Shown here: positions 8,165-64,000 of the stretch, one piece after another
Position numbering within the stretch: the stretch's first letter is position 1
How the letters are laid out: each line of letters starts with the position of its first letter
DNA from: Escherichia coli
GTDB taxonomy: Bacteria; Pseudomonadota; Gammaproteobacteria; Enterobacterales; Enterobacteriaceae
Reading direction: 5' to 3' (one strand)
Assembly (NCBI RefSeq): GCF_003790525.1
Contig: NZ_CP033635.1
Length of the DNA: 64,000 bases
Program-made: the position numbers and the translations under genes
The notes under the pieces: model-generated
Database searches by the model: none
The model's input: only the letters and a program-made list of their open reading frames with translations
What the model was told of the DNA's origin: nothing

Positions 8165-9076
8165 GTGAGTACATTAGAACAAACAATTGGCAATACGCCT
8201 CTGGTGAAGTTGCAGCGAATGGGGCCGAATAACGGCAGTGAAGTCTGGTTGAAACTGGAAGGCAATAACCCGGCAGGTTCGGTAAAAGATCGTGCGGCAC
8301 TTTCGATGATCGTCGAGGCGGAAAAGCGCGGCGAGATTAAACCGGGTGATGTGTTGATCGAAGCCACCAGTGGTAACACCGGCATTGCGCTGGCAATGAT
8401 TGCCGCGCTTAAAGGCTATCGCATGAAATTGCTGATGCCCGACAACATGAGCCAGGAACGCCGTGCGGCAATGCGTGCCTACGGTGCGGAACTGATTCTG
8501 GTCACCAAAGAGCAGGGCATGGAAGGTGCGCGCGATCTGGCGCTGGAGATGGCCAATCGTGGTGAAGGAAAGCTGCTCGATCAGTTCAATAATCCTGATA
8601 ATCCCTTCGCCCATTACACCACCACCGGGCCGGAAATCTGGCAGCAGACTGGCGGGCGCATTACCCATTTTGTCTCCAGCATGGGAACAACCGGCACTAT
8701 CACCGGCGTTTCACGCTTTATGCGCGAACAATCCAAACCGGTGACCATTGTTGGCCTGCAGCCGGAAGAAGGCAGCAGTATTCCGGGCATTCGCCGCTGG
8801 CCTGCGGAATATCTGCCGGGGATTTTCAACGCTTCGCTGGTGGATGAGGTGCTGGATATTCATCAGCGCGATGCGGAAAACACCATGCGCGAACTGGCAG
8901 TGCGGGAAGGAATATTCTGTGGCGTCAGCTCCGGCGGCGCGGTTGCCGGAGCACTGCGGGTGGCAAAAGCTAACCCCGGCGCGGTGGTTGTGGCGATCAT
9001 CTGCGATCGCGGCGATCGTTACCTTTCTACCGGGGTGTTTGGGGAAGAGCATTTTAGCCAGGGGGCGGGGATTTAA
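8165..9076 (+). CDS. cysM: Cysteine synthase B (O-acetylserine sulfhydrylase B)
   Basis: GTG start at 8165 gives 303 aa (VSTLEQTIGNTPLVKLQRMGP...), PLP-enzyme fold; the track ORF from 8087 is a 5' extension through the REP. Confidence 0.9.
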   Translation: MSTLEQTIGNTPLVKLQRMGPNNGSEVWLKLEGNNPAGSVKDRAALSMIVEAEKRGEIKPGDVLIEATSGNTGIALAMIAALKGYRMKLLMPDNMSQERRAAMRAYGAELILVTKEQGMEGARDLALEMANRGEGKLLDQFNNPDNPFAHYTTTGPEIWQQTGGRITHFVSSMGTTGTITGVSRFMREQSKPVTIVGLQPEEGSSIPGIRRWPAEYLPGIFNASLVDEVLDIHQRDAENTMRELAVREGIFCGVSSGGAVAGALRVAKANPGAVVVAIICDRGDRYLSTGVFGEEHFSQGAGI

Positions 9077-9078
9077 GA

Positions 9079-9538
<460 letters not shown>

Positions 9539-9551
9539 GAGAAAAAATTAA

Positions 9552-10403
9552 ATGAGTAGTTTGTTGTTGTTTAACGATAAGAGCAGGGCACTGCAGGCGG
9601 ATATCGTTGCCGTGCAGTCGCAGGTAGTGTACGGCAGCGTAGGCAACAGCATTGCGGTGCCTGCTATCAAACAGAACGGCCTGAATGTCTTTGCCGTGCC
9701 GACGGTATTGCTGAGCAATACGCCGCATTATGACACTTTCTACGGTGGTGCGATTCCGGATGAATGGTTTAGCGGTTATTTGCGTGCGCTTCAGGAGCGT
9801 GATGCGCTGCGCCAACTTCGTGCTGTAACCACGGGCTATATGGGAACGGCATCGCAAATCAAAATCCTTGCCGAGTGGCTGACTGCGCTACGCAAAGACC
9901 ATTCTGACTTATTGATTATGGTCGATCCGGTGATCGGCGATATTGATAGCGGAATTTATGTCAAACCTGACCTTCCCGAAGCGTATCGACAATATTTACT
10001 GCCGCTGGCGCAGGGAATTACCCCCAATATCTTTGAGCTGGAAATCCTGACCGGTAAAAATTGCCGCGATCTCGACAGTGCCATTGCTGCCGCAAAAAGT
10101 CTGCTTTCAGACACATTAAAATGGGTGGTGATTACCAGCGCCTCCGGTAATGAAGAAAATCAGGAGATGCAGGTGGTGGTGGTCAGTGCCGACAGCGTGA
10201 ATGTCATTTCCCATTCACGGGTTAAAACTGACCTGAAAGGGACTGGCGACCTGTTTTGTGCTCAGCTTATCAGTGGTTTGCTGAAAGGGGAGGCGTTAAC
10301 CGATGCGGTGCACCGCGCGGGGTTGCGCGTACTGGAAGTGATGCGCTATACCCAGCAGCATGAGAGCGATGAATTGATTTTGCCGCCGCTGGCGGAAGCA
10401 TAA
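9552..10403 (+). CDS. pdxK: Pyridoxal/pyridoxine/pyridoxamine kinase
   Basis: 283-aa ORF matching PdxK ([32 protein letters not shown]...). Confidence 0.95.
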
Positions 10404-10411
10404 AAAAATGG

Positions 10412-10423
10412 CGCCGATGGGCG
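10412..10423. repeat. Left copy of the 12-bp target-site duplication (cgccgatgggcg) flanking IS4
   Basis: Identical 12-mer directly abuts both IS4 termini (10412-10423 and 11850-11861). Confidence 0.75.
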
Positions 10424-11849
10424 TAATGCCAGTCAGTTAAGCAACTGACTGGCTCTTTTTCGGGGCTGTGGGGTATTTCCAGGGCCTCTCCTTTACCACT
10501 CTCGGGAAGGCCCTTTCCCTTCTTGTCGGTAATTTCACAAGTTGTCCCATACTTGCAAGATCGCGCATCAGCTCCGGTATACGTCCCGGTGAAGCGCCCT
10601 GCAATGTCATCAGCATTCTCATCACCATTCCACATGATTCTGAGAAACTCAGTTGATTCGGCCAGTAACCTTTCAGATGTTCCGCCATTTTAATCATCTG
10701 ATATCTCACCAGATTATAAGCCAGTAAGACACCCCACAGCTCTTGCTCCACAAGCTCCGGTTTTTTACTTCTCAGCGTCAGCCTGCTCAGTTGCATCGTC
10801 TGTTTTATCTCCCTGTATCCCAGTTCGATTTCCCAGCGATGACTGTACAGATCCGCCATTTCTCCTCCGGGGAAGCGCATGGCGTCCGTCATCGACGTCA
10901 GCAGATGGCAGACTTTTCCTTTGCGCGTCACGGTCAGCAGGCGGGCTGTCACTTCATTTCCCAGTCCCGGCCACTTTTTTCGTGCCTGCGGGCTGGTTTT
11001 CAGCTTCACCAGATGATCGCCTTTACCCAGTTTTCTGATCTCTTCATATTGCGCTCCCTTTCTGAGAGGTATCATCCAGTGGCGGTGTTCTCCCGCCAGG
11101 CTCCAGGCATTTAACAGTCCCAGTGAGTAATAACCTTTATCCATTAACGTCAGAGTGTTATCGCCGGTTTGTTCTATAAGTTGCTCAGCAAGCTCATTTT
11201 CGCTGTTCTTCATCGTGCCGAAGGCTGCAGCCGTCAGCAGATGGCTGGTCAGTTCCATCTGGCAGACCATTTTGACCTGCGGGTAGAGCGCCGGGTTCCC
11301 GGCATGTGTCTGGCGGGGGAAGGCTGCATCGTTCTCTGGTGTATCCGGTGTGCGCCAGAACACACCATCGATGGCCAGCAGGGTCAGGCCGCACCAGTGC
11401 GGATGCGGCGTGGCGTTATGCCAGAGCTGCGCTGTTTTCGTGAACACGCGGCGGACAGCCTCACTTCCCAGGCGCTGGCGGGCCTGAATAACGGCACTGG
11501 GGGCAACGAAGGGGCGATTGCCCGGCAGCATGATGTCCAGGCGATTCACAATCTGGTGAAGAGGTTCTTTACGCTCAAGCGCCATGCCAACAATACACCA
11601 GACCATCATTTCGAGGGGAAGACGGCGCTTGCGTAGCGTTACAGTACCTGATTCGGCAAGGCAACGAGAGATGAGTTCGGGGTCGAGGTAATCCCCCAGA
11701 GAAGTCAGTGGGTTACGCAGAGAATCGTAACGGGATACCAGATCAAGAGCCTGTCCAATGTGCATAAAAAAATCCGGAAACAAGTGAGCGTTTCCGGATT
11801 CTTACACAGCCACTGGATCGGTCAACTGATCCTTAACTGATCGGCATTA
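10424..11849 (-). mobile_element. Insertion sequence IS4, 1426 bp, complete
   Basis: Terminal inverted repeats TAATGCCAGTCAGTTAAG (left) and TAATGCCGATCAGTTAAG (right, reverse complement), 16 of 18 matching; encodes the full-length transposase; flanked by a 12-bp direct repeat. Confidence 0.92.
10437..11765 (-). CDS. insG: IS4 transposase (DDE family)
   Basis: 442 aa from [26 protein letters not shown]..., the IS4 InsG sequence as I recall it; no frameshift or stop. Confidence 0.92.
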
Positions 11850-11861
11850 CGCCGATGGGCG
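11850..11861. repeat. Right copy of the 12-bp target-site duplication flanking IS4
   Basis: cgccgatgggcg, identical to 10412-10423. Confidence 0.75.
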
Positions 11862-11883
11862 CCATTTTTCACTGCGGCAAGAA

Positions 11884-12393
11884 TTACTTCTTGATGCGGA
11901 TAACCGGGGTTTCACCCACAGTCACGCTACCGGACAGTTTGATCAGTTCTTTGATTTCGTCCATGTTGGAGATAACAACCGGAGTCAGGGTAGACTTGGC
12001 TTTCTCTTCCAGCAGCGGCAGATCGAATTCAATCACGGTATCGCCAACTTTCACGCGCTGACCTTCTTCAGCAATACGCTTGAAGCCTTCGCCTTTCAGT
12101 TCAACGGTGTCGATACCGAAGTGGACGAACAGTTCAACGCCGCTATCAGATTCGATAGAGAACGCGTGGTTGGTTTCAAAGATTTTACCAATGGTGCCGT
12201 CTACAGGCGCGACCATTTTGTTACCCGTTGGTTTGATAGCAATGCCATCACCAACGATTTTTTCCGCAAAAACGACATCCGGCACGTCTTCGATATTGAC
12301 GATCTCGCCAGAGAGCGGAGCAATGATCTCAATAGTTCCGGTATCCTTCTTGTCGTCGGAAACCAGAGATTTCAGTTTATCGAACAAACCCAT
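11884..12393 (-). CDS. crr: PTS glucose-specific enzyme IIA
   Basis: 169-aa ORF ([39 protein letters not shown]...). Confidence 0.97.
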
Positions 12394-12433
12394 GATCTTC
12401 TCCTAAGCAGTAAATTGGGCCGCATCTCGTGGA

Positions 12434-14161
12434 TTAGCAGATTGTTTTTTCTTCAATGAACTTGTTAACCAGCGTCATTAACTCGTCCGTTGTCGGTTGA
12501 GCAAGAGCCTGCTCTGCTAACACCTTCGCATCTTCGAAGTTCGTGTTACGGATAATCTTCTTAATGCGCGGGATAGAAATGGCGCTCATAGAGAATTCGT
12601 CCAGACCCATCCCCAGCAACAGAAGTGTAGCACGTTCATCGCCAGCAAGCTCACCACACATGCCAGTCCATTTGCCTTCAGCATGAGAAGCATCAATAAC
12701 TTGCTTGATCAAGTTCAGCACGGACGGTGACATTGGCTGGTAAAGGTGTGAAATCATATCATTACCACGGTCAACTGCCAGAGTGTACTGCGTTAAATCA
12801 TTGGTGCCGATACTAAAGAAATCAACTTCTTTGGCTAAATGACGTGCAATTGTTGCGGCAGCCGGTGTTTCCACCATTACGCCGATTTCAATTGACTCGT
12901 CAAACGCTTTACCTTCGTCGCGCAGTTCCTGTTTGTAGATTTCGATCTCTTTGCGCAGTGCACGCACTTCTTCAACAGAGATGATCATCGGGAACATAAT
13001 GCGCAATTTACCGAAAGCCGAGGCACGCAGGATAGCGCGGAGCTGATCGCGCAGGATCTCTTTACGATCCATCGCGATACGGATAGCGCGCCAGCCGAGG
13101 AACGGGTTCTCTTCTTTCGGGAAGTTCATGTATGGCAGCTCTTTGTCGCCGCCGATGTCCATGGTACGAACGATAACCGCCTGCGAGCCACACGCTTCAG
13201 CCACTGCTTTGTAAGCAGCAAACTGTTCTTCTTCAGTGGGCAGCGCGTCGCGGTCCATGAACAGGAACTCAGTACGATACAGACCAACGCCTTCAGCGCC
13301 GTTACGCTCTGCACCTTCAACGTCACGAACCGTACCAATGTTAGCGCACACTTCTACCTGGTGACCGTCCAGCGTAATAGCTGGCAGATCTTTCAGTTTA
13401 GCAAGCTCTGCTTTTTCAGAAGCCACTTGCTCCTGAACAGCGCGCATTTTATCAATAACTTCGTTGGTTGGATTGACGTAAACCTGATTATTTACGGCAT
13501 CCAGAATCAGATAGTCGTCATTTTTCACCTGAGAGGTGACGCTACCGGTACCCACGATAGCAGGCAGTTCCAGAGAACGCGCCATGATAGAGGTGTGGGA
13601 AGTACGGCCACCCGCGTCGGTGATGAAACCCAGCACCTTCTTCAGGTTCAGCTGTGCGGTTTCGGACGGCGTCAGGTCAGCGGCAACCAGAATGACTTCA
13701 TCCTGAATGGCGCTCAGGTCGATAATCTTCAGGCCCAGGATGTTGCGCAGCAGGCGCTTACCGATATCACGTACGTCAGCCGCACGTTCTTTCAGGTATT
13801 CATCATCCAGCTCTTCCAGGGCAGAAGCCTGACCTTCGATAACTTCATGAGCAGCTGCGTCAGCTGTCATGTGCTTATCTTTAATCAGGGCTATGATTTC
13901 CTGCTCCAGCTCCTCATCTTCGAGCAGCATAATATGCCCTTCAAAGATGGCTTCTTTTTCTTCACCGAACGTTTCACCAGCTTTCGTTTTGATCGTTTCC
14001 AGCTGGGCTGATGCCTTGGCACGACCGCTCAGAAAACGTTCAACTTCCTGATCAACCTGGTCGGCAGAAATTTTTTTCCGGTCAATGACAATTTCGTCTT
14101 CTTTCAGAAGCAGAGCTTTACCGAAAGCGATACCCGGGGATGCTAAAATGCCTGAAATCAT
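12434..14161 (-). CDS. ptsI: PTS enzyme I (phosphoenolpyruvate-protein phosphotransferase)
   Basis: 575-aa ORF ([35 protein letters not shown]...). Confidence 0.97.
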
Positions 14162-51400: not shown

Positions 51401-51417
51401 CATTGCACAGTTTGCTT

Positions 51418-51489
51418 TTAGATCATCAGGGCAAAAGTACCGGCCCAAACGATGACCATAAAAGAAATGCCCATAAAGAAATATTTCAC
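51418..51489 (-). CDS. ypdK: Small membrane protein YpdK (23 aa), GTG start
   Basis: Reverse-strand gtgaaatatttctttatgggcatttcttttatggtcatcgtttgggccggtacttttgccctgatgatctaa = MKYFFMGISFMVIVWAGTFALMI, preceded by ggagag; below the ORF-track size cutoff. Confidence 0.55.
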   Translation of the reverse strand: MKYFFMGISFMVIVWAGTFALMI

Positions 51490-51844
51490 TTTACATCTCT
51501 CCGCGTAATTACTGTTACGCCTGAATGACTTCATTACACCTGATACAGTGAGTTGACACCGGGCAAAACGACCTTAAAAGTCCTGTATTTTACCGTGGGC
51601 ATCACCCCAGAATTCTGAGCTAAACTGCTCCAGACGGCGCTAATGTACGCCTAAAACTGAAACGAGACAAGAGGCATTTTCTTATTTACTTTTAGTAACT
51701 TACAGGTGTCTCATATCGGCGACAGTTTAATTTCTGACGGTAATAATTAGAGATTCAGCGAAGGAAAAAACCTTAAGAAAAAAGCCATAAAAACCATGAG
51801 GTTATTATGGCTGATTTGAGGAGGGAAAGAGTAAGAGCAGTTTG

Positions 51845-52765
51845 TTAAATGTATAGCGACGATTCTCCCACCGGGCGCGTTTTAAAGCGACGGTGGATCC
51901 ATAGGTACTGCTCCGGTGCGCGCATGATCTCTTTTTCGATAATCTTGTTCATATAGGCAGCGGCTTGATTTTCATCTGCCGGGTAGCCTTCCATCTCTGG
52001 GGTGATGTACAAACGATATCCGCTGTAATCCGCTTTTCTTACCATCGTTACGGTTAACATGGCTGCGCCAGAGAGACGTGAAAGGACATACGTACCATTG
52101 GTTGTGGCAACATTTTCCACCGCAAAGAACGGCGCGAAGGAGCTGCCTTTACGACCATAATCCTGATCGGGAGCAAACCATACCGCTTCACCTTTCTTCA
52201 GTGCACCGACAATGCCGCGCAGATTATTTCTGCCGATCATCGCTTTGTTAGAGCGCATGCGACCACGGGTCTGCACCCATTCCATCAGCTGATTATTATG
52301 TGGACGATAGGTGGCCATCATTGGCTGACAAAGTCCCATCACGCGGCCGCCCAGTTCCAGCGACATAAAATGGACGCCGACAACCATTACGCCGCGATTT
52401 TGCATTTGTGCGCGTTTAAGATTATCCAACCCTTCAACATCAAACCATTTACGTACGCGACTGTCGGGCCAGAACCACGCCATGCCGGTTTCTACCAGCG
52501 CCATGCCGAGTGAACGAAAGTTTTCGGCAATCATCTTCTCGCGTTCTTCCGCAGAATGCTGCGGGAAACAAAGTTCCAGGTTTTTACGGGCGATAGATTC
52601 ACGCCGTTTCAGGAATGGTCGCGCCATTGCGCCAATACGCGTGCCGAGAAAGCAGAGAACAGGATAAGGAAGTTGTACCCAAAGCCAGAGTACACCAAGC
52701 CCAAACCATGTGAGCCAGTAGCGAGGATGCAGAAACTCGCGGGAAAATTTGCATTGTGGAAACAT
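51845..52765 (-). CDS. lpxP: Lipid A palmitoleoyltransferase (cold-induced lauroyl/palmitoleoyl acyltransferase)
   Basis: 306 aa from MFPQCKFSREFLHPRYWLTWFGLGVLWL... Confidence 0.92.
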   Translation of the reverse strand: MFPQCKFSREFLHPRYWLTWFGLGVLWLWVQLPYPVLCFLGTRIGAMARPFLKRRESIARKNLELCFPQHSAEEREKMIAENFRSLGMALVETGMAWFWPDSRVRKWFDVEGLDNLKRAQMQNRGVMVVGVHFMSLELGGRVMGLCQPMMATYRPHNNQLMEWVQTRGRMRSNKAMIGRNNLRGIVGALKKGEAVWFAPDQDYGRKGSSFAPFFAVENVATTNGTYVLSRLSGAAMLTVTMVRKADYSGYRLYITPEMEGYPADENQAAAYMNKIIEKEIMRAPEQYLWIHRRFKTRPVGESSLYI

Positions 52766-53117
52766 AGTTACCTTCTGTAGATACGAATTGTTGTATCGCA
52801 GAAGATTCCATGTCGACAGCGGTACACTCAATTGATTAGGCCATCATGTACGACAATGGTTCCTGTAAAGAGTGTAAAGACTAGTCAGGACATAACCACG
52901 AGGAGCATGAATGCGGTGGCTCTACTTTATCACTGGCTGACTGCTTTCAGCTACTGATTATTAATCGTGCAAAGTAAAAAGTTTTCCGCACGCAATAGCG
53001 TTGCATTTAACGTGCTGTTTTCATTGATGCTTAGCAAAAATTGCCAGAGGTTAAGGATTGTCTTACTATTAAAGTGACTGAAGTTACAGGTTTTTTAGCG
53101 CGGCAGGAGGTTGAGCT

Positions 53118-53360
53118 ATGATTTATTTATGGATGTTTCTCGCCCTGTGTATTGTCTGCGTAAGCGGATACATCGGTCAGGTCCTGAACGTGGTCTCGGC
53201 GGTCTCTTCTTTCTTCGGCATGGTGATCCTCGCTGCACTCATTTACTACTTCACCATGTGGTTAACTGGCGGTAATGAACTAGTGACGGGGATATTTATG
53301 TTTCTTGCCCCGGCTTGTGGCTTGATGATTCGCTTTATGGTGGGGTATGGCAGGCGCTAG
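53118..53360 (+). CDS. yfdY: Small inner-membrane protein (DUF2545)
   Basis: 80-aa hydrophobic ORF at the conserved position next to lpxP. Confidence 0.8.
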   Translation: MIYLWMFLALCIVCVSGYIGQVLNVVSAVSSFFGMVILAALIYYFTMWLTGGNELVTGIFMFLAPACGLMIRFMVGYGRR

Positions 53361-53436
53361 TGGGTCAGGATGGTTCATTTGGGCAGGTGTTCACATCAGC
53401 ATCAGGCATGATTGTTCACCTGCCATGTGACAGACG

Positions 53437-53712
53437 CTATCGCACAGGATGGATAAGATAATTCGCCTTTGTCGGAAAAGGGGGCGGAATTTCATCTGTG
53501 AGGTTTAATGGTGGCGCATCTTCTCTCATTTTTAACAAAATCGCCTGTGATGGCTGAAATTTTGTAGAATGAGTTGTCGTCATCATTGACGTTTTTTCTG
53601 TCTCTTTATAGCTCGCCTCACTACCACCACCAGAAATAGAAAATGCAAAAACATTGCATGCCATAATAGAGACCAATAAAAATAAGCTAAAAAGCATTAA
53701 GTTTACTTTCAT
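53437..53712 (-). CDS. ypdI: Putative lipoprotein YpdI
   Basis: 91 aa with lipoprotein-type signal peptide (LLVSIMAC lipobox). Confidence 0.8.
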   Translation of the reverse strand: MKVNLMLFSLFLLVSIMACNVFAFSISGGGSEASYKETEKTSMMTTTHSTKFQPSQAILLKMREDAPPLNLTDEIPPPFPTKANYLIHPVR

Positions 53713-53854
53713 AGAAAGTTATCCTGAAAATGGTTCACTGAAAACCTACGACGTTATTGCTGTATTTACATATAATTAATCAGTATTTACATCGATATAA
53801 TAAATGACATCTCTTTTTGGTATATAAGAATAGTTCTCTGTGACAGGAAGCATA

Positions 53855-53872
53855 TTCCTACAACTGTAAGAC
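53855..53872. promoter_or_regulatory. EvgA box upstream of yfdX
   Basis: TTCCTACAACTGTAAGAC fits the TTCYTACA-NN-TGTARGAA EvgA-box pattern. Confidence 0.5.
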
Positions 53873-53892
53873 TAAATGCCGCTTTGCGATAA

Positions 53893-53910
53893 TAACTACA
53901 GTTGTAAGAT
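53893..53910. promoter_or_regulatory. Second EvgA-box-like site upstream of yfdX
   Basis: TAACTACAGTTGTAAGAT, about 100 bp upstream of the yfdX start. Confidence 0.45.
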
Positions 53911-54007
53911 AACCCTTTCAAAATGTCCGTTGCTCTCTGATTTCTCATTTCATGCTCACCCAATATGATGGCGGCGTTTTCTAAAACTGTTAAAGAATGA
54001 GGTAAGT

Positions 54008-54631
54008 ATGAAACGTTTAATTATGGCTACGATGGTCACAGCAGTTCTGGCATCTTCAACTGTATGGGCTGCTGATAATGCACCGGTAGCGGCACAACAG
54101 CAAACTCAGCAAGTTCAGCAAACGGCAGCAGCAGAGCGTATCTCTGAACAAGGTTTATATGCGATGCGTGACGTGCAGGTAGCGCGCCTGGCTCTGTTTC
54201 ATGGCGATCCGGAAAAGGCAAAAGAACTGACCAATGAAGCTTCCGCTTTGTTGTCAGATGACAGTACCGAATGGGCAAAGTTCGCAAAGCCAGGTAAAAA
54301 GACCAATGTCAATGATGACCAATATATTGTCATTAATGCATCTGTCGGAATTTCTGAGAGTTATGTAGCGACACCTGAAAAAGAAGCCGCGATAAAAATT
54401 GCCAACGAAAAAATGGCGAAAGGGGATAAAAAGGGCGCAATGGAAGAGCTTCGCCTGGCCGGTGTTGGTGTAATGGAAAACCAATATCTGATGCCGCTTA
54501 AACAGACTCGTAATGCACTTGCTGATGCGCAGAAACTGCTTGATAAAAAGCAATACTACGAGGCAAACCTGGCGCTTAAAGGTGCGGAAGATGGAATCAT
54601 CGTCGATAGCGAAGCACTGTTTGTGAACTAA
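54008..54631 (+). CDS. yfdX: Periplasmic protein YfdX (EvgA-induced)
   Basis: 207-aa ORF with signal peptide [21 protein letters not shown]. Confidence 0.9.
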
Positions 54632-54685
54632 AGCTGACAGGCAATATATTGAGGTAAAGGATTTTACTCCCTCCAGCCGACAATT

Positions 54686-54722
54686 TTTTATGGCCACAAT
54701 ACGACAGGTTGTGGCCATAAAA
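54686..54722 (+). terminator. Strong hairpin terminator downstream of yfdX
   Basis: 13-bp perfect inverted repeat TTTTATGGCCACA...TGTGGCCATAAAA with an 11-nt loop, followed by ttattt. Confidence 0.6.
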
Positions 54723-54874
54723 TTATTTGGCGCTCGCGGTTCTATAAACTCGAATTTTATCTTCCTCAAAGTAAACCGCAATAATCCCGTGTTATCACAA
54801 ATCATTTATTATGTTATGTTTTATGGTACGCTTTAAAAAGCGTAATCATACCCTTACTTGTAAATCACTGGCGC

Positions 54875-54892
54875 TTCTTACAGTTGTAAGAA
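54875..54892. promoter_or_regulatory. Perfect-palindrome EvgA box upstream of frc
   Basis: TTCTTACA-GT-TGTAAGAA, 250 bp upstream of the frc start. Confidence 0.5.
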
Positions 54893-55142
54893 TAACATCA
54901 CAAATGTCGCGGCTCTCTCTGATTACCGCGAGCCAATATTTATCATATTCTTCTTTTCGTCCTCACTACTTACCATGCAGAAAGGAATTGGAAGTAGCGA
55001 TGAAATGATTTTCAGTACTTGATACAGGAATTTAAAAATATCGAGTGCAGCTACGACGATATTTTGCGGATTATTTATAGAGGCGTTATGTCTTAAATAA
55101 ACGCTAAATTAACACATATTTAATTAACTAATAGGTATTGCT

Positions 55143-56393
55143 ATGTCAACTCCACTTCAAGGAATTAAAGTTCTCGATTTCACCGGTGTGCAATCTGGCC
55201 CATCTTGTACTCAAATGCTGGCCTGGTTTGGCGCTGACGTCATTAAAATTGAACGTCCCGGCGTTGGTGACGTAACGCGTCACCAGCTGCGAGATATTCC
55301 TGATATCGATGCGCTTTACTTCACCATGCTTAACAGTAACAAACGTTCTATTGAATTAAATACCAAAACAGCGGAAGGCAAAGAGGTAATGGAAAAGCTG
55401 ATCCGCGAAGCTGATATCTTAGTCGAGAACTTTCATCCTGGGGCCATTGATCACATGGGCTTCACCTGGGAGCATATTCAAGAAATCAATCCACGTCTGA
55501 TTTTTGGTTCGATCAAAGGGTTTGATGAGTGTTCGCCTTATGTGAATGTAAAAGCCTATGAAAACGTTGCTCAGGCAGCGGGTGGCGCGGCATCCACTAC
55601 GGGTTTTTGGGACGGTCCGCCGCTGGTAAGCGCTGCAGCGTTGGGTGACAGCAACACCGGAATGCATTTACTGATCGGTTTACTTGCTGCTTTGCTGCAT
55701 CGCGAAAAAACGGGGCGTGGGCAACGAGTCACCATGTCAATGCAGGATGCCGTATTGAACCTTTGCCGCGTGAAATTACGCGACCAGCAGCGTCTCGATA
55801 AATTGGGTTATCTGGAAGAATACCCGCAGTATCCGAATGGCACATTTGGTGATGCAGTTCCCCGCGGAGGTAATGCGGGTGGTGGCGGTCAGCCTGGCTG
55901 GATCCTGAAATGTAAAGGCTGGGAAACCGATCCTAATGCCTATATTTATTTCACTATTCAGGAGCAAAACTGGGAAAACACCTGTAAAGCTATCGGCAAA
56001 CCAGAATGGATTACCGATCCGGCATACAGTACAGCCCATGCCCGACAGCCACATATTTTCGATATTTTTGCTGAAATCGAAAAATACACTGTCACTATTG
56101 ATAAACATGAAGCTGTGGCCTATTTGACTCAGTTTGATATTCCTTGTGCACCGGTTTTAAGTATGAAAGAAATTTCACTTGATCCCTCTTTGCGCCAAAG
56201 TGGCAGTGTTGTCGAAGTGGAACAACCGTTGCGTGGAAAATATCTGACAGTTGGTTGTCCAATGAAATTCTCTGCCTTTACGCCGGATATTAAAGCTGCG
56301 CCGCTATTAGGTGAACATACCGCTGCTGTATTGCAGGAGCTGGGTTATAGCGACGATGAAATTGCTGCAATGAAGCAAAACCACGCCATCTGA
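55143..56393 (+). CDS. frc: Formyl-CoA:oxalate CoA-transferase
   Basis: 416-aa family III CoA-transferase. Confidence 0.95.
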
Positions 56394-56446
56394 TATTAAC
56401 GGGGGCTTCTGGCTCCCAATTTATAAAAATTTCGAGGTTATTAATC

Positions 56447-58141
56447 ATGTCAGATCAACTTCAAATGACAGATGGTATGCATATCATCGTTGAAGCATTA
56501 AAACAGAATAATATTGACACTATTTATGGTGTTGTAGGTATTCCTGTGACGGATATGGCACGCCATGCCCAGGCGGAAGGCATTCGTTATATTGGTTTTC
56601 GTCATGAGCAGTCGGCAGGCTATGCCGCTGCGGCAAGCGGTTTTCTTACCCAAAAACCAGGGATCTGCCTGACAGTGTCTGCGCCAGGATTCCTCAATGG
56701 TTTGACCGCATTGGCCAACGCAACGGTAAATGGTTTTCCGATGATCATGATTAGCGGCTCCAGCGACCGCGCGATCGTCGACCTACAGCAAGGTGATTAT
56801 GAAGAGCTGGACCAAATGAATGCGGCAAAACCGTATGCCAAAGCAGCATTCCGCGTTAATCAGCCGCAGGATCTTGGCATTGCATTGGCACGCGCTATCC
56901 GGGTCTCAGTATCGGGTCGCCCTGGCGGAGTTTATCTTGATTTGCCAGCAAATGTCCTGGCCGCGACGATGGAAAAAGACGAAGCGTTAACCACGATTGT
57001 AAAAGTTGAAAATCCGTCGCCAGCATTATTGCCATGCCCGAAGTCAGTCGCTAGCGCAATTTCGCTTTTAGCAAAAGCTGAACGACCATTAGTTATCCTT
57101 GGCAAAGGCGCGGCGTATTCACAAGCTGATGAACAGCTTCGTGAATTTATTGAAAGTGCCCAGATTCCATTCCTGCCAATGTCTATGGCGAAAGGGATCC
57201 TGGAAGATACACATCCACTTTCTGCGGCAACTGCGCGTTCGTTTGCCCTGGCAAATGCTGACGTTGTCATGCTTGTTGGTGCACGACTGAATTGGTTACT
57301 GGCACACGGTAAAAAAGGATGGGCGGCAGATACACAGTTTATTCAACTGGATATTGAACCGCAGGAAATTGACAGCAACCGCCCCATTGCTGTGCCAGTC
57401 GTTGGCGATATTGCATCCAGTATGCAAGGTATGCTGGCAGAACTGAAACAAAACACATTTACGACTCCACTGGTATGGCGCGATATTTTAAATATCCACA
57501 AGCAGCAAAATGCACAAAAAATGCATGAAAAGTTAAGTACAGATACCCAACCATTAAATTACTTTAATGCATTGAGTGCCGTGCGCGATGTTTTGCGCGA
57601 GAACCAGGATATTTATTTAGTTAATGAAGGGGCAAATACCCTGGATAATGCACGAAATATTATTGATATGTATAAACCACGTCGTCGTCTGGATTGTGGC
57701 ACCTGGGGTGTCATGGGCATCGGTATGGGCTATGCCATCGGTGCTAGCGTGACCTCTGGTTCTCCGGTTGTCGCCATTGAAGGTGATAGTGCTTTTGGTT
57801 TCAGTGGGATGGAGATTGAAACGATTTGTCGATATAACCTGCCGGTGACGATCGTTATTTTTAATAATGGCGGCATCTACAGAGGAGACGGTGTTGATCT
57901 CAGTGGCGCTGGTGCACCATCACCAACAGATCTGTTGCACCATGCAAGGTATGACAAATTAATGGATGCGTTTCGTGGCGTTGGCTATAACGTCACCACG
58001 ACAGATGAACTTCGTCATGCTTTAACCACCGGTATTCAGTCGCGCAAACCGACCATTATTAATGTGGTCATCGACCCTGCAGCAGGAACTGAAAGTGGCC
58101 ATATTACCAAACTTAACCCAAAACAAGTCGCTGGTAATTAA
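56447..58141 (+). CDS. oxc: Oxalyl-CoA decarboxylase (ThDP-dependent)
   Basis: 564 aa with ThDP-binding GDSAFGFS...NNGG motif. Confidence 0.95.
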
Positions 58142-58209
58142 ATACTGACATCGTCTCCTCTTGCCAACTCATTATCGATGGTGAGGGGACCCTTATCGGA
58201 AATACTATT

Positions 58210-59154
58210 ATGCTAACATTTTTTATTGGCGATTTATTGCCTATTATCGTAATCATGCTGTTGGGTTATTTTAGCGGCAGACGAGAAACTTTTTCAGAAG
58301 ATCAAGCCCGGGCATTTAATAAACTGGTATTAAACTACGCTCTTCCTGCGGCCCTATTTGTTTCTATTACCCGGGCAAACAGGGAAATGATTTTTGCGGA
58401 CACTCGCCTGACCCTTGTATCACTTGTGGTTATTGTCGGATGTTTCTTTTTCTCCTGGTTTGGTTGCTACAAATTTTTTAAACGTACCCATGCAGAAGCA
58501 GCAGTATGTGCATTAATTGCAGGTTCACCTACCATCGGATTCCTGGGGTTTGCAGTTCTCGACCCTATTTATGGTGATTCCGTATCAACAGGTTTAGTGG
58601 TAGCAATTATTTCTATTATTGTTAACGCAATTACTATTCCTATTGGTCTGTATTTGTTGAATCCTTCCTCAGGAGCGGATGGTAAGAAGAATAGCAATCT
58701 GAGCGCATTAATTTCTGCGGCAAAGGAGCCAGTAGTATGGGCACCTGTTCTGGCAACGATCCTGGTGTTGGTTGGGGTAAAAATTCCGGCAGCATGGGAC
58801 CCAACCTTTAATCTGATTGCGAAGGCTAACTCAGGGGTAGCGGTATTCGCTGCGGGGTTGACTCTGGCTGCACATAAATTCGAGTTCAGTGCCGAAATTG
58901 CTTATAACACCTTCCTGAAGCTGATTCTGATGCCACTGGCGCTGCTTCTCGTGGGTATGGCATGTCATTTGAACAGCGAACATTTGCAGATGATGGTACT
59001 GGCAGGCGCCTTACCGCCGGCATTCTCCGGAATCATTATTGCCAGCCGGTTTAATGTCTATACCCGCACTGGTACAGCATCATTGGCTGTGAGCGTACTG
59101 GGCTTTGTCGTCACGGCTCCCTTGTGGATTTATGTCAGTCGACTGGTTTCATAA
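58210..59154 (+). CDS. yfdV: AEC-family membrane transporter
   Basis: 314-aa polytopic membrane protein in the yfdX-frc-oxc-yfdV-yfdE cluster. Confidence 0.9.
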
Positions 59155-59227
59155 TTAATCATGTTATTGATTTTACATAAATGCCGAAGTGTCTTTTCAC
59201 CTTCGGCTTTTTTCAAGGCATAAGCAA

Positions 59228-60373
59228 ATGACAAATAATGAAAGCAAAGGGCCGTTTGAAGGCTTATTAGTTATCGATATGACGCATGTCCTTAATGGGC
59301 CTTTCGGAACTCAACTTCTTTGTAATATGGGCGCAAGGGTAATTAAAGTTGAGCCGCCAGGTCATGGTGATGATACCCGCACATTTGGTCCCTATGTGGA
59401 TGGACAGTCACTCTATTACAGTTTTATTAATCATGGCAAAGAGAGTGTGGTTCTTGATTTAAAGAATGATCACGATAAAAGTATATTTATAAATATGCTT
59501 AAACAAGCTGATGTATTAGCTGAGAATTTTCGCCCAGGTACAATGGAAAAACTGGGGTTTTCATGGGAAAGGTTACAAGAAATCAACCCGCGCCTTATAT
59601 ATGCTTCATCGTCAGGTTTCGGACATACCGGTCCGCTAAAAGATGCTCCTGCCTACGATACCATCATTCAGGCAATGAGCGGGATAATGATGGAAACAGG
59701 ATACCCTGATGCTCCGCCAGTGCGCGTTGGTACCTCTCTTGCGGATCTATGTGGTGGTGTTTATTTATTCAGCGGAATAGTGAGTGCACTTTATGGCCGC
59801 GAAAAGAGCCAGAGAGGTGCGCATGTCGATATAGCGATGTTTGATGCCACGCTGAGTTTTCTGGAGCATGGACTGATGGCATATATCGCGACTGGGAAGT
59901 CACCACAACGCCTGGGAAATCGCCATCCCTACATGGCACCTTTTGATGTTTTTGATACTCAGGATAAGCCGATTACAATTTGTTGTGGTAATGACAAGCT
60001 TTTTTCTGCGTTATGCCAGGCACTGGAGCTTACAGAACTGGTTAATGATCCCCGATTTAGCAGCAATATTTTACGCGTACAAAACCAGGCTATTCTTAAA
60101 CAATATATTGAGCGAACGTTAAAAACGCAGGCAGCTGAAGTTTGGTTAGCCAGAATACATGAAGTTGGTGTACCCGTCGCGCCGTTATTAAGTGTGGCTG
60201 AGGCCATTAATTTGCCACAAACTCAGGCGAGAAATATGTTGATTGAAGCCGGAGGAATAATGATGCCAGGTAATCCGATAAAAATCAGCGGCTGCGCGGA
60301 CCCGCATGTTATGCCGGGAGCGGCAACGCTCGACCAGCATGGGGAACAAATTCGCCAGGAGTTCTCATCATAA
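59228..60373 (+). CDS. yfdE: Acetyl-CoA:oxalate CoA-transferase (family III)
   Basis: 381 aa from MTNNESKGPFEGLLVIDMTHVLNGPFG...; internal ATG of track ORF 59189..60373. Confidence 0.9.
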   Translation: MTNNESKGPFEGLLVIDMTHVLNGPFGTQLLCNMGARVIKVEPPGHGDDTRTFGPYVDGQSLYYSFINHGKESVVLDLKNDHDKSIFINMLKQADVLAENFRPGTMEKLGFSWERLQEINPRLIYASSSGFGHTGPLKDAPAYDTIIQAMSGIMMETGYPDAPPVRVGTSLADLCGGVYLFSGIVSALYGREKSQRGAHVDIAMFDATLSFLEHGLMAYIATGKSPQRLGNRHPYMAPFDVFDTQDKPITICCGNDKLFSALCQALELTELVNDPRFSSNILRVQNQAILKQYIERTLKTQAAEVWLARIHEVGVPVAPLLSVAEAINLPQTQARNMLIEAGGIMMPGNPIKISGCADPHVMPGAATLDQHGEQIRQEFSS

Positions 60374-60428
60374 ATGTAAGATGTGCTGGTAAATAGCTCC
60401 CACATTAGAACATTGTGGGAGCCGCAAT

Positions 60429-63400
60429 TTAGTCATTTTTCTGACAGAAAACAGCAATCTCCTGGTCCAGCTCTGCAATGTGTTCTTTTACAGAGTTCAG
60501 CAACTGAAGAATTTCAGGCTTACTGTCATCTGAAACAGGTGTTATTTCTAACTGATGGCTAATATTAATCAACTTTTGCAAATTCAGGATGTTAGCCGCA
60601 CCGTGGATGCGATGAATACACTGATGGAAAGTTCTGTTATCGCCAGCTTCTAGTGCATGAAACGCAGCGGGTAGATCTTTATGCGTTTCATGCTGGAAAG
60701 TCATGAGAATCTCCTGCATCAGTTGTAGATCATTCGCCGTATTATTCTTCAGGGCCTCGATATCAAGGTGGCGATACTGAGGTGCAATATGCGCAACCTG
60801 GTGTAACTGACTTAAATGTGTTTTCAGTACATCCAGAGTCAACGGTTTGAACAAACATAAGTTCATGCCGCAATTTAACCCTTTTTCACGTTCGTTAGCC
60901 TGTGCGTTGGCTGTAAGCCCCCAGATGGGTAAGGAAGAATTTTGCTCACGGAGTTTGCGAGTCAACTCAAAACCATCCATATTCGGCATATTTACGTCAG
61001 TAATAAGCAGATCATAATGTTGCATACTGATTTTGTGTAGCGCTTGCACACCATCAGTGGCTTCATCAACATCATATCCTAATAGATTTAGCTGGCGTTT
61101 GAGTAATAGCCTGTTGGTCGGATGATCATCCGCGATTAATATGCTCAACTTTTCAGGTAGTGTGATAGGTTGTTCTGCTTTTGTCTCTATAGCCGCCACT
61201 TGTTGGGTAATTTCTACCGGGATTGTGATCGTAAATATCGTTCCTATGCCTGGATGACTTTCTAATGACAAATCGCCCTGCATGTTTTTTATTAATTCTT
61301 TGCAGATCATTAAGCCTAAACCAGAACCTGTTTGCTGACGACCTGCACTTGTTTGGCTATAGCGTTTAAACAGTTGTTGTTGTTCTTCCTGCGATAATCC
61401 ACTTCCAGAATCCATAATCGTCATTTTGATAACAGCGTGGTTGTCATCAATGTGACCCAGGGAGGTCGTAATTTTTACTGCTCCCTCGGTAGTAAATTTG
61501 AGAGCATTACTCAGTAAATTAGATAAGACCTGCTTAAACGCCTGAGGGTCGATCTTAACCAGGTAGCGTTCAGGAAACGTACTGCTGCAACTTAATGCGA
61601 TGGATTTGCTTGCAGCAATCGCACCGAAAGAGTGACAAGTGTTCTGGACTAAAGTAGGGATATCGACCCATTGTGGTTGAAGTTGATAGTTACCCGATTC
61701 AATTTTGTCGACATCAAGGATTTCACCAATTAAGCCGAGGAGTGATTGTCCGGTGGCGTAGGCAAGTGAAATCGCCTCCACCCGTTGCTCCTTGCTAAGA
61801 CCAGAACCCGACAGTAGTTCCAGGAAGCCCATAATGGAGCTTATTGGTGTTCTTATTTCGTGACTCATTGTTGCCAGAAACTGGCTTTTTGCGACAGTTG
61901 CATTGATCGCTTTATTTCTCTCTACTTCGAGTGCATGAATTAAATCACGCGTCTCGGTAATATCTTGCCAACCACAAATATAAACAGCATGTTCGCTTGC
62001 TGGCAGATTACATAAGGTATGCCAGTGATTAATGCATCTTTTCTCGATGCCATTATCAATTTCAAATACCTGTGTGTATATTGTTCGGTTTTCTTTCGTT
62101 TCTGCTGTGACTTCATGCGTATTAGAAAAAACATCTTTAAAGGGGGATTCACTGTTTTCTAATGGTAACATTGCACTTTTATAGTAATCAGCAGTGAAAT
62201 AATGTTCAAATGCACTATTGTGACTAATGACATTACCTTGCCAGTTTACAACATAAGTTGGATTCGGTAAGGAGTCCGAGAGTGCTTTCCGGAATGATAT
62301 TTGGTTTTCTAAATCACCCTGAATAACTTTACGACGACGAACTGAGCGTAACAGGTAGAATCCCCATAAAAGGCTACTGCCAACTAATAAAACGGATAAT
62401 GTCGTAACAATATAAAATTGCTCGCTATAGAGGTCCCATGTATCAATGGTCACATTGGGCATTTTAATCCATTTTTCGGTCAGGCGCAGAACTTCGCTTG
62501 GGGGAATTGCATTCAGTGCTTTATTAATAATATCCTTAAGTTCCGGTTCTCCGCGAGGAAAAGCGAACGAAAGTGATGCATTCTGAACGCCGGGAATAAG
62601 AAAATGATAAAGTTCATTAGGATAGTAATGGTCGATCATGTAACGCGAATTTAACTGTGTCGCGACCAGAGCATCAAGTTCACCTTCCTTGACCTTGTGA
62701 AATGCAGCGCTGGCGTTATCGACTTTTATCCACTCTACCTCCGGATACATCTCTTTTAATTGCGAATGAAGCTCATAATAATATGGAATGGCAACTTTCA
62801 TTCCTTTTTTTAATGTTTGTTCACTGTCAGGCGCTTTTTGCATGACAAAAACGTAAGGCGTTGTTATGAAGGCTTCAGCAAATGAAACATTATTTTCTCG
62901 ATCTTCACTATAAATAGCGGCGGGCAATATATCCCATCCACCGGGGTTAAGCTGTGTCCCCGCATGAATATTGTGTGAAACGGTGATCGGAGAAAAATTT
63001 AAACCTGTTTGCAAGGTAATAATATTAAGAATATCACCCATCACGCCCCGAACTGAGCCAGTTTCATCTGTCATAGAATAGGGTGGCGAGTAAGGATTTT
63101 CCAGCACCTTTAAATCGGGATGCTGCTTAATCCACTGTTTTTCATGTTCAGTGAGTTCTAATGGTTTGTTCAGAAAGGCCAGGTTTCCTGTATCAAGCCA
63201 ATTTTGTGATACTTCATAGCGAACTTCATTTGTTAAAGCATCAACAAATCGATTGAGTACTTCATTAAGAACGATTGAATCTTTTCTGGTTAATAAAAAG
63301 TTATATTGACGCGGTGAGTTATAATACTTCACTACATTTAAGGAGTGAGTAAAATAACGGGAAATCATACTGCTGGTAATGATGTTACTACCAATAAAGT

Positions 63401-64000
63401 AATCATTCTGTCCGGCTGAGACGGATGCTAATGCCTGATATAAATTTGTAAAAGAGATAATTGTTGCTTTTGGAAATGATTGATGAATTACCTCGTCTGG
63501 GGGATAATTTGCTACTCGAGCAATATTTACTGGTTTTGATGAGGTAAGCGGTCGCATTGAATCGTGAAGGGTAGTGACCAGCGCCGGAAAGGTAATTATC
63601 AGAGGATTAGTTGCAGCAATGTCATCATTAAGAGGCGGCGAAGCAACTAAATGTGATAACACTATATCAACTTCACCGTCTTCCAGCGCGTCCATTGCTT
63701 TTTGATGATCTGCGTATTCCCGGAGTGTTAATTTGATATTTAACGCTCTTTTTAAAAGATTTAAATAATCAGCATTAATACCACGAATCCGTTGCTGCGA
63801 ATCGGTATGCAACAACGTAGCTGTTTGGGACTTGTGTACTGCAATCACAAGATTTTTTTTGCTCGCTAGCCAACGTAATTCCTTGTTGCTCAGACGTAGT
63901 GGATCAAGTGTGACACGGTTGTTACTACTGATGCCACGATATTCGATGTAATCTCCGTCTGCGAAACTTATGGTCGACCAAAGACCACAACAGAGAAGAA
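60429..64000 (-). CDS. evgS: Hybrid sensor histidine kinase EvgS; N-terminus lies beyond the window end (partial)
   Basis: Open frame to position 64000; translation from the window edge reads ...FLLCCGLWSTISFADGDYIEYRGISSNNRVTLDPLRLSNKELRWLASKKNLVIAVHKSQ..., continuing through HisKA/HATPase, receiver and HPt domains. Confidence 0.95.
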   Translation of the reverse strand, partial: LLCCGLWSTISFADGDYIEYRGISSNNRVTLDPLRLSNKELRWLASKKNLVIAVHKSQTATLLHTDSQQRIRGINADYLNLLKRALNIKLTLREYADHQKAMDALEDGEVDIVLSHLVASPPLNDDIAATNPLIITFPALVTTLHDSMRPLTSSKPVNIARVANYPPDEVIHQSFPKATIISFTNLYQALASVSAGQNDYFIGSNIITSSMISRYFTHSLNVVKYYNSPRQYNFLLTRKDSIVLNEVLNRFVDALTNEVRYEVSQNWLDTGNLAFLNKPLELTEHEKQWIKQHPDLKVLENPYSPPYSMTDETGSVRGVMGDILNIITLQTGLNFSPITVSHNIHAGTQLNPGGWDILPAAIYSEDRENNVSFAEAFITTPYVFVMQKAPDSEQTLKKGMKVAIPYYYELHSQLKEMYPEVEWIKVDNASAAFHKVKEGELDALVATQLNSRYMIDHYYPNELYHFLIPGVQNASLSFAFPRGEPELKDIINKALNAIPPSEVLRLTEKWIKMPNVTIDTWDLYSEQFYIVTTLSVLLVGSSLLWGFYLLRSVRRRKVIQGDLENQISFRKALSDSLPNPTYVVNWQGNVISHNSAFEHYFTADYYKSAMLPLENSESPFKDVFSNTHEVTAETKENRTIYTQVFEIDNGIEKRCINHWHTLCNLPASEHAVYICGWQDITETRDLIHALEVERNKAINATVAKSQFLATMSHEIRTPISSIMGFLELLSGSGLSKEQRVEAISLAYATGQSLLGLIGEILDVDKIESGNYQLQPQWVDIPTLVQNTCHSFGAIAASKSIALSCSSTFPERYLVKIDPQAFKQVLSNLLSNALKFTTEGAVKITTSLGHIDDNHAVIKMTIMDSGSGLSQEEQQQLFKRYSQTSAGRQQTGSGLGLMICKELIKNMQGDLSLESHPGIGTIFTITIPVEITQQVAAIETKAEQPITLPEKLSILIADDHPTNRLLLKRQLNLLGYDVDEATDGVQALHKISMQHYDLLITDVNMPNMDGFELTRKLREQNSSLPIWGLTANAQANEREKGLNCGMNLCLFKPLTLDVLKTHLSQLHQVAHIAPQYRHLDIEALKNNTANDLQLMQEILMTFQHETHKDLPAAFHALEAGDNRTFHQCIHRIHGAANILNLQKLINISHQLEITPVSDDSKPEILQLLNSVKEHIAELDQEIAVFCQKND

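Follow-up and report, generated by a model that had tools for sequence, protein, structure and literature searches.

Probable separate EvgA-dependent promoters of yfdX and frc in Escherichia coli share a layout common to EvgA targets

Introduction

Two look-alike segments of the Escherichia coli chromosome, one upstream of yfdX and the other upstream of frc, probably serve as upstream activator regions in two distinct EvgA-dependent sigma-70 promoters, of which the first drives yfdX and the second frc-oxc-yfdV-yfdE. A hairpin between the two units would limit read-through, and the likeness of the two segments would mainly reflect a shared promoter layout. EvgA dependence and EvgA binding are taken from the literature; the present analysis contributes the sequence features, the register in which they stand, and how far they are conserved and exceed chance.

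The existence of a separate EvgA promoter for frc is supported, yet already known, and is textbook-level for the regulon. More specifically, Mullins et al., 2013 (PMC3720670) place EvgA-binding inverted repeats before yfdX and before yfdWUVE, inducing both, so that the two promoters described here are listed members of the EvgA group; they cite Masuda and Church, 2003 for the induction of yfdX and yfdWUVE by EvgA. Johnson et al., 2014 (PMC4283999) report frc as the gene with the highest fold increase in an evgS-constitutive mutant, call yfdU (oxc) the most strongly induced EvgS-regulated gene, and found EvgA sites only at targets already known. Roggiani et al., 2017 (PMC5706723) employ PyfdX as a direct reporter of EvgA~P, citing Itou et al., 2009. 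The fixed layout of EvgA promoters, together with its conservation into Buttiauxella and Y. vastinensis, is the sole and modest addition made here. Overall, the feature is an ordinary, known regulatory one with modest new detail, and its significance is small.

Results

Genomic setting

The window, that is the whole stretch of 64,000 nucleotides analysed, is E. coli chromosome containing ypdI, yfdX, frc-oxc-yfdV-yfdE and evgS (Table 1). Positions 51410-64000 are collinear with K-12 MG1655 2,484,396-2,497,000, from ypdK to evgS, at 97.2% identity. The 1.8 kb surrounding both modules is found in 5422 of 5426 complete E. coli genomes, and the yfdX promoter stretch has the same sequence in the type strain ATCC 11775. 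The evgA gene lies just beyond the window edge, and the genome that carries the two promoters has evgAS.

Table 1. Features of the yfdX-frc region, in window coordinates.
Feature	Position	Strand	Details
ypdI	53437-53712	-	
Distal yfdX box	53855-53872	+	TTCCTACAACTGTAAGAC; 1 mismatch; centre about -112.5 from predicted yfdX start
Proximal yfdX box	53893-53910	+	TAACTACAGTTGTAAGAT; 3 mismatches; centre about -74.5 from predicted start
yfdX module	53893-53942		TAACTACAGTTGTAAGATAACCCTTTCAAAATGTCCGTTGCTCTCTGATT
yfdX linker	53911-53942	+	25 nt, with CA at 53919-53920, then TCTGATT at 53936-53942
Putative yfdX core promoter	53942-53969	+	-35 TTCTCA (53942-53947), 16-nt spacer, -10 TATGAT (53964-53969); consensus scan
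yfdX CDS	54008-54631	+	207 aa, periplasmic YfdX family protein
Intrinsic-terminator-like hairpin	54686-54722	+	15-bp stem (5 G:C pairs), 7-nt loop, then TTATTTGG
frc box	54875-54892	+	TTCTTACAGTTGTAAGAA; 0 mismatches, perfect inverted half-sites; centre about -74.5 from predicted start
frc module	54875-54924		TTCTTACAGTTGTAAGAATAACATCACAAATGTCGCGGCTCTCTCTGATT
frc linker	54893-54924	+	25 nt, with CA at 54901-54902 inside ACAAATGT, then TCTGATT at 54918-54924
Putative frc core promoter	54923-54951	+	-35 TTACCG (54923-54928), 17-nt spacer, -10 TATTCT (54946-54951); shared register
frc (yfdW) CDS	55143-56393	+	first gene of frc-oxc-yfdV-yfdE
evgS	60429 to window end	-	

EvgA boxes upstream of yfdX and frc

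Masuda and Church reportedly gave, in 2003, an 18-bp inverted repeat with the consensus TTCYTACA-N2-TGTARGAA as the EvgA site. When checked, this consensus matched upstream of the known EvgA targets safA, ydeP, emrK/evgA and yegR in K-12; upstream of gadE no box was found at three or fewer mismatches. With up to three mismatches allowed, the pattern TTCYTACANNTGTARGAA has only three matches in the window against 0.44 expected, and these are the boxes listed in Table 1. As originally predicted, an EvgA-box-like inverted repeat opens each module, and the frc copy is perfect.

The two yfdX boxes lie 38 bp apart. It is the proximal, weaker box that fits the register of other EvgA promoters, and the better, distal box, 38 bp off that register, is not part of the aligned module. 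The distal box is kept in K-12 and degenerate in Y. vastinensis; in strain A10 it is gone along with the next 20 bp. A 90-nt query that includes the frc box was found in 5403 of 5426 complete genomes of E. coli, and the box is kept in Y. vastinensis. The original prediction had paired the frc module with the weaker, proximal yfdX box, and the distal box falls inside the interval that it covered.

A cryptic box, CTTACTTGTAAA, was considered at 54853-54864 upstream of the frc box and rejected: its half-sites are 2 bp too close, K-12 has a mutated left half, and Y. vastinensis lacks the element altogether.

The two modules resemble each other beyond the box

The two segments proposed to be look-alike are indeed alike. 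Local alignment of the two intergenic regions, upstream of yfdX and upstream of frc, gave a score of 30 against 15.2 ± 2.3 for dinucleotide shuffles, none of 1000 of which scored as high. The likeness reaches beyond the box, since CAAATGTC and CTCTCTGATT are common to both modules; once the boxes were taken out, the following 65 nt kept a score of 15 against 8.3 ± 1.6, a value reached by 6 of 2000 shuffles. Part of this likeness is strain-specific. To some extent the 13-mer TACAGTTGTAAGA, in its exact form, and the match at ATGTC are limited to the present strain, K-12 yfdX having TACAACTGTAAGA and ATGAC, and the spacer of the K-12 yfdX box is AC where the present strain has GT.

A promoter layout common to EvgA targets

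The EvgA-box promoters retrieved were anchored, without gaps, on the first base of the 18-mer. Those of yfdX and frc came from the window, from K-12 and from Y. vastinensis; four Buttiauxella species each supplied yfdX, and K-12 also supplied safA, ydeP, yegR and emrK. All anchored promoters have CA at index 27-28, 20 bp beyond its counterpart CA in the left half-box, and TC at index 44-45. The longer element TC[CT][TG]ATT (TCYKATT) occupies index 44-50, 25 nt after the box, in all but emrK (TCCTCTG); every yfdX and frc promoter carries the G variant TCTGATT, and safA, ydeP and yegR carry TCCTATT or TCTTATT. Six promoters together have 5 invariant columns against 0.22 expected from random circular shifts (0 of 5000 as many), and the excess holds in sets of four promoters that cannot be mutual paralogues (p = 0.002 and 0.005).

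Downstream of these elements, the promoters of yfdX, frc, safA, ydeP, yegR and emrK each have a -10-like hexamer that starts 61.5-62.5 nt from the centre of the box. At 62.5 nt the hexamers are TATGAT (yfdX), TATTCT (frc), TATTAT (Y. vastinensis frc), TATTCT (Buttiauxella yfdX), TATTAT (yegR) and TAAATT (emrK); at 61.5 nt they are TATATT (safA) and TAATTT (ydeP), the last read by eye and below the scan threshold. The Y. vastinensis yfdX promoter also has a -10-like hexamer within 61.5-62.5 nt of the box centre. If the -10 occupies -12 to -7, the box is centred at about -74.5, CA falls on -57/-56, and TCYKATT spans -40 to -34 and so overlaps the first two bases of a weak -35.

On this register, yfdX would start near 53976 and frc near 54958, the latter with a predicted leader of about 185 nt. 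In K-12 coordinates these predicted starts correspond to about 2,494,434 for yfdX and about 2,493,440, minus strand, for frc. The register of about -74.5 rests on -10-like hexamers in AT-rich DNA because no mapped start of frc or yfdX was retrieved, and rival -10-like hexamers lie close by in frc (TATCAT at 57.5 and CATATT at 60.5). Among the positions listed in the supplements of two Cappable-seq papers, none lies close to where yfdX and frc are predicted to start in K-12; the genes were probably silent under the conditions used, or the listings are incomplete. An Rfam search of 53700-55250 found no RNA family, with a sub-threshold miRNA match on the terminator hairpin only; the long frc leader would accordingly be without a known riboswitch or sRNA.

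A second full EvgA palindrome within the linker was also considered (frc ACAAATGT, safA TCAGTACTGA, ydeP CAATTG) and rejected, since its right half is not kept: it is lost in yfdX of K-12 and Y. vastinensis and in frc of Y. vastinensis, which has TCT for TGT.

Conservation in other genera

A scan for YfdX, with one genome per species, found the entire yfdX-frc-oxc-yfdV-yfdE-evgS island in Y. vastinensis, where YfdX is 85% identical. In Buttiauxella, yfdX and an evgS/evgA-like pair converge directly on each other, the frc-oxc genes being missing from the interval. The yfdX promoters of both have the same linker and TCTGATT layout as E. coli yfdX.

Between E. coli and Y. vastinensis, the whole yfdX-frc intergenic region is 55% identical. 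Identity is concentrated in the module 54875-54924 (88%; box 83%, linker 88%, that is 22/25) and in the hairpin (84%), against 40% in the DNA between hairpin and box and 44% from the yfdX stop codon to the hairpin. The frc module is thus strongly constrained, and because its linker is kept at 88% when the flanks are at about 40%, the constraint on the linker bears on sequence as well as length. The frc -10 hexamer matches at 5/6 positions, Y. vastinensis frc having TTACAC-17-TATTAT in the columns of the E. coli -35 and -10, and the yfdX -10 is also kept.

A terminator-like hairpin separates yfdX from the frc module

Downstream of the yfdX stop codon lies a stable GC-containing stem-loop followed by a T-run, as in Rho-independent terminators. 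In a 60-nt context it folds at -27.8 kcal/mol (z = -7.3), and in both K-12 and Y. vastinensis one G:C pair of the stem is replaced by A:T, a compensatory change. The strong hairpin predicted at the end of yfdX is thus present, with a stem of 15 bp rather than the 13 bp first given. Its T-run (TTATTTGG) is not continuous, and that of Y. vastinensis is poor, which makes some read-through past the hairpin likely. Partial read-through would probably reconcile the two wordings in the literature, 'yfdXWUVE operon' and 'yfdX plus yfdWUVE'. With such a hairpin between the two units, an independent frc promoter would be useful.

Discussion

A separate promoter for frc

The original prediction gave frc-oxc-yfdV-yfdE its own EvgA promoter, and the evidence agrees: the box is perfect, its register to a -10-like hexamer is that of other EvgA targets, the 50-bp module is kept at 88% against about 40% in the flanks, and a conserved hairpin separates yfdX from the module. 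A different account would deny the frc box any part in an frc promoter, with frc transcribed by read-through of a yfdXWUVE operon or from a frc-proximal promoter, and the box serving another purpose or none. Several papers do use the term 'yfdXWUVE operon', the interrupted U-tract fits some read-through, and genomic SELEX located a site for RNA polymerase and H-NS between yfdX and frc, for which another pair of hexamers was proposed, TTTATA-18-AATAAT (PMC3946193). Such an account would, however, leave a perfect and near-universal E. coli box standing in the register of other EvgA promoters and conserved together with an aligned -10, and yfdX and yfdWUVE are named as separate EvgA-induced units (PMC3720670); we regard it as very unlikely.

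Shared layout, duplication or chance

The likeness of the two modules is a separate question. It was originally read as a duplication, the frc promoter being a paralogue of the yfdX promoter, and this is not established, since most of the letters in common (box, CA, TCTGATT) belong to the general EvgA layout. Because that layout is common to EvgA-activated promoters, it explains most of the resemblance between yfdX and frc. Outside the functional elements, their likeness is not above that of non-paralogous promoters of the EvgA regulon: the ungapped yfdX and frc linkers agree at 12/25 positions, compared with 13/25 for frc and emrK, 14/25 for Y. vastinensis yfdX and ydeP, and 12/25 for E. coli yfdX and its Buttiauxella counterpart, and the yfdX and frc spacers between -35 and -10 agree at 3/21. 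The gapped linker score does favour the pair in the present strain (p = 0.006) and in K-12 (p = 0.036), but the alignment requires two compensating 1-nt indels, the matches in the GT spacer and ATGTC are partly strain-specific, and the signal fades in Y. vastinensis (p = 0.25), where box, CA and TCTGATT are nevertheless kept in both promoters.

True paralogy would mean that the frc module was duplicated from an ancestral yfdX module when frc-oxc-yfdV-yfdE was inserted between yfdX and evgS. In its favour, yfdX adjoins an evgAS-like two-component system without frc-oxc in Buttiauxella and also in Klebsiella (PMC5706723), so that the yfdX promoter is clearly older than the frc promoter. Furthermore, the G of TCTGATT is confined to yfdX and frc in all species examined (safA, ydeP and yegR having TCYTATT), the 10-mer CTCTCTGATT is common to both and CTC precedes TCTGATT in both. 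The adjacent safA and ydeP promoters, which are clearly alike after the box (linker 17/25, spacer 10/21, p < 0.0002), provide a likely precedent for local promoter copying within the EvgA regulon; their likeness is, however, far stronger and specific to the pair, whereas that of yfdX and frc does not rise above the regulon background. We therefore hold the duplication to be possible but on balance doubtful. At the other extreme, the likeness past the EvgA box might be chance in AT-rich intergenic DNA, of no functional or historical meaning. The sequences are short, and in K-12 and Y. vastinensis the two promoters resemble each other less than they do in the window, yet chance sits badly with a box-masked score so rarely reached by shuffles, with offsets of CA and TCTGATT identical in up to nine promoters, and with a frc linker kept across genera far better than its flanks. 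Chance is accordingly disfavoured and, to our mind, scarcely credible.

A tentative mechanism and its likeness to BvgA promoters

Under the preferred reading of two separate EvgA promoters with a shared layout, phosphorylated EvgA, a response regulator of the NarL/BvgA family, would bind the 18-bp repeat about 74.5 bp upstream of the predicted start and, from this palindrome, would activate a weak sigma-70 promoter. TCYKATT, which resembles a half-site, lies 42 bp beyond the first half-site, in phase with it on the helix, and adjoins the weak -35. We infer, tentatively, that further EvgA dimers might extend cooperatively from the strong site toward the -35, as BvgA does; the presence of CA (+20 bp) and TCYKA (+42 bp; compare TTCYTACA) on one helical face is what would be expected if EvgA dimers extend in this manner. 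Common descent of the yfdX and frc modules is possible, and their resemblance does not require it.

The comparison with BvgA draws on homologous regulators of the NarL/FixJ type, EvgAS and BvgAS being sister phosphorelays. At the Bordetella promoters Pfha and Pptx, head-to-head BvgA dimers follow one another at 22-bp intervals, beginning at a strong site upstream and ending at one that abuts the -35 (PMC7250471). Both kinds of promoter have a strong inverted repeat furthest upstream, constrained and phased DNA leading to the -35, and a weak -35. In contrast, three to six BvgA dimers have been mapped by FeBABE cleavage at 22-bp spacing, whereas the case for EvgA consists here of conserved letters at +20 and +42 bp only; these spacings are 20 and 42 bp and not the 22 and 44 bp of BvgA, a second palindrome is not conserved, and between the EvgA box and the -35 no more than one or two additional dimers would fit.

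A stronger proposal can be formulated, in which a rigid layout of three parts governs all EvgA targets of E. coli and extends to yfdX of Buttiauxella: a palindrome at about -74.5, CA two turns on, and TCYKA four turns on and abutting a weak -35. Such a rule would imply nucleation like that of BvgA~P followed by phased dimers touching RNA polymerase, with the frc promoter recruited by copying the layout from an older, evgAS-linked yfdX promoter. We offer this combined proposal as speculation that is unlikely to hold in full.

Place within the EvgA regulon

The K-12 EvgA promoters (ydeP, safA-ydeO, yegR, emrKY, yfdX and frc/yfdW) share the box, about 62 nt to the -10, CA and TCYKATT, with the emrK variant noted above. 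Compared with the other members, yfdX stands apart in having two boxes, the common register being kept by the weaker, proximal box alone, and frc in combining one perfect box with a long predicted leader (about 185 nt). The safA and ydeP promoters form a second adjacent EvgA pair with alike sequences after the box.

The arrangement would wire the oxalate-decarboxylation genes frc-oxc and the periplasmic, chaperone-like YfdX separately to the acid-sensing EvgS/EvgA phosphorelay. Separate wiring would account for the fact that, although a terminator follows yfdX, frc and oxc can rank with the genes most strongly induced in evgS-constitutive mutants. The layout (box, CA, TCYKATT and -10) also offers a sharper search pattern than the 18-mer for targets of the EvgA/KvgA type in other enterobacteria, and gives concrete point mutations with which to probe BvgA-like phased oligomerisation by EvgA.

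Among minor observations on the region, two open reading frames are considered spurious: 54811-55008 (+), which spans the frc promoter, and 54254-54805 (-), which is antisense to yfdX. The RcsB box KMRGAWTMWYCTGS (PMC6394985) is matched at a half-site only, and this half-site overlaps the EvgA box.

Probable promoter copies and box number

In K-12, the adjacent safA and ydeP promoters (locus L002, 4089-3990 and 6748-6650 in that locus's own coordinates, minus strand) are alike far past the EvgA box, both carrying AAnTCCGCnCAnnAnTGAAGC...GTCyTATTT, with 17/25 identities in the linker and 10/21 in the spacer (p < 0.0002). This pair makes a clearer case for promoter copying than yfdX/frc. The K-12 evgA promoter (locus L003, 5531-5640, in the direction of evgA) departs from the common EvgA register: its TCCCTGATTTTA-like element lies 26 nt farther from the box, immediately upstream of the TTGACA that a genomic SELEX study assigned as the -35 of evgAS (PMC3946193).

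The number of boxes at yfdX also varies. Aligned to window 53855-53910, E. coli strain A10 (NZ_CP195143.1, L017) lacks precisely the 38 bp by which the two yfdX boxes are set apart and retains one hybrid box, TTCCTACAACTGTAAGAC, in the promoter-proximal place. From the alignment, this looks like the product of recombination between the two boxes or else the state before their duplication. The single-box state is rare, 5263 of 5267 genome matches covering at least 80% of the yfdX promoter query.

The island and its promoters in other lineages

Yersinia vastinensis IP38594 carries the entire yfdX-frc-oxc-yfdV-yfdE-evgS island (locus L005, 7800-16612), with a YfdX 85% identical to that of E. coli. 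The island directly follows arsB and an arsC-like open reading frame, named by eye from its N-terminal sequence, where E. coli has ypdI, and the likeness to E. coli sets in shortly before the distal yfdX box. The comparison points to horizontal transfer of the yfdX-evgS island together with its promoters. No Escherichia species besides E. coli turned up in the YfdX scan of one genome per species that found Y. vastinensis.

Between E. coli and Y. vastinensis, the inferred frc leader retains two conserved blocks, separated by 115 nt of 43% conservation; no Rfam family matches either block.

Conserved blocks of the inferred frc leader
Feature	Window position	Conservation, E. coli vs Y. vastinensis	Content
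Block 1	54952-54975	75%	TTCTTTTCGTCCTCACTACTTACC, at the predicted start
Block 2	55091-55142	75%	CTTAAATAAACGCTAAAT and ribosome-binding region

In Buttiauxella spp. (loci L006-L010 and L012; ~7850-8010 and 8791-12838), yfdX and an evgS/evgA-like phosphorelay face each other convergently, and no frc-oxc genes lie between them in these loci. The phosphorelay comprises SBP_bac_3, HisKA, HATPase, REC and Hpt domains and a LuxR-type regulator. The yfdX promoter there contains the palindrome TCTGACA-N2-TGTCAGA, whose register matches that of the E. coli box, and a second box-like palindrome precedes the regulator gene (L006, 12821-12838).

The window yfdX promoter (within 53855-54010) is identical to the copy in ATCC 11775, a phylogroup B2 strain. 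Both EvgA promoters, yfdX and frc, are intact in the window, and evgS occupies 60429-64000. Since the EvgS of most B2 strains is unresponsive to mild acid (Roggiani et al., 2017; PMC5706723), these promoters appear to be maintained even though the known inducing signal may have no effect in this lineage.

Insertion sequences and a contaminant

Insertion sequences also land around these promoters in some E. coli strains. In strain Z503 (L015), the match to the frc promoter module ends after window position ~54909, between the box and TCTGATT, and an IS1 is annotated ~50 bp past the end of this match; IS903B and IS1 are annotated within the ypdI-frc region in strains 165 and GN02270. Separately, a 241-nt scaffold of Limosilactobacillus vaginalis DSM 5837 (L011) codes for the last 54 residues of YfdX, 100% identical to the E. 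coli protein, and almost certainly entered the Lactobacillus assembly as an E. coli contaminant.
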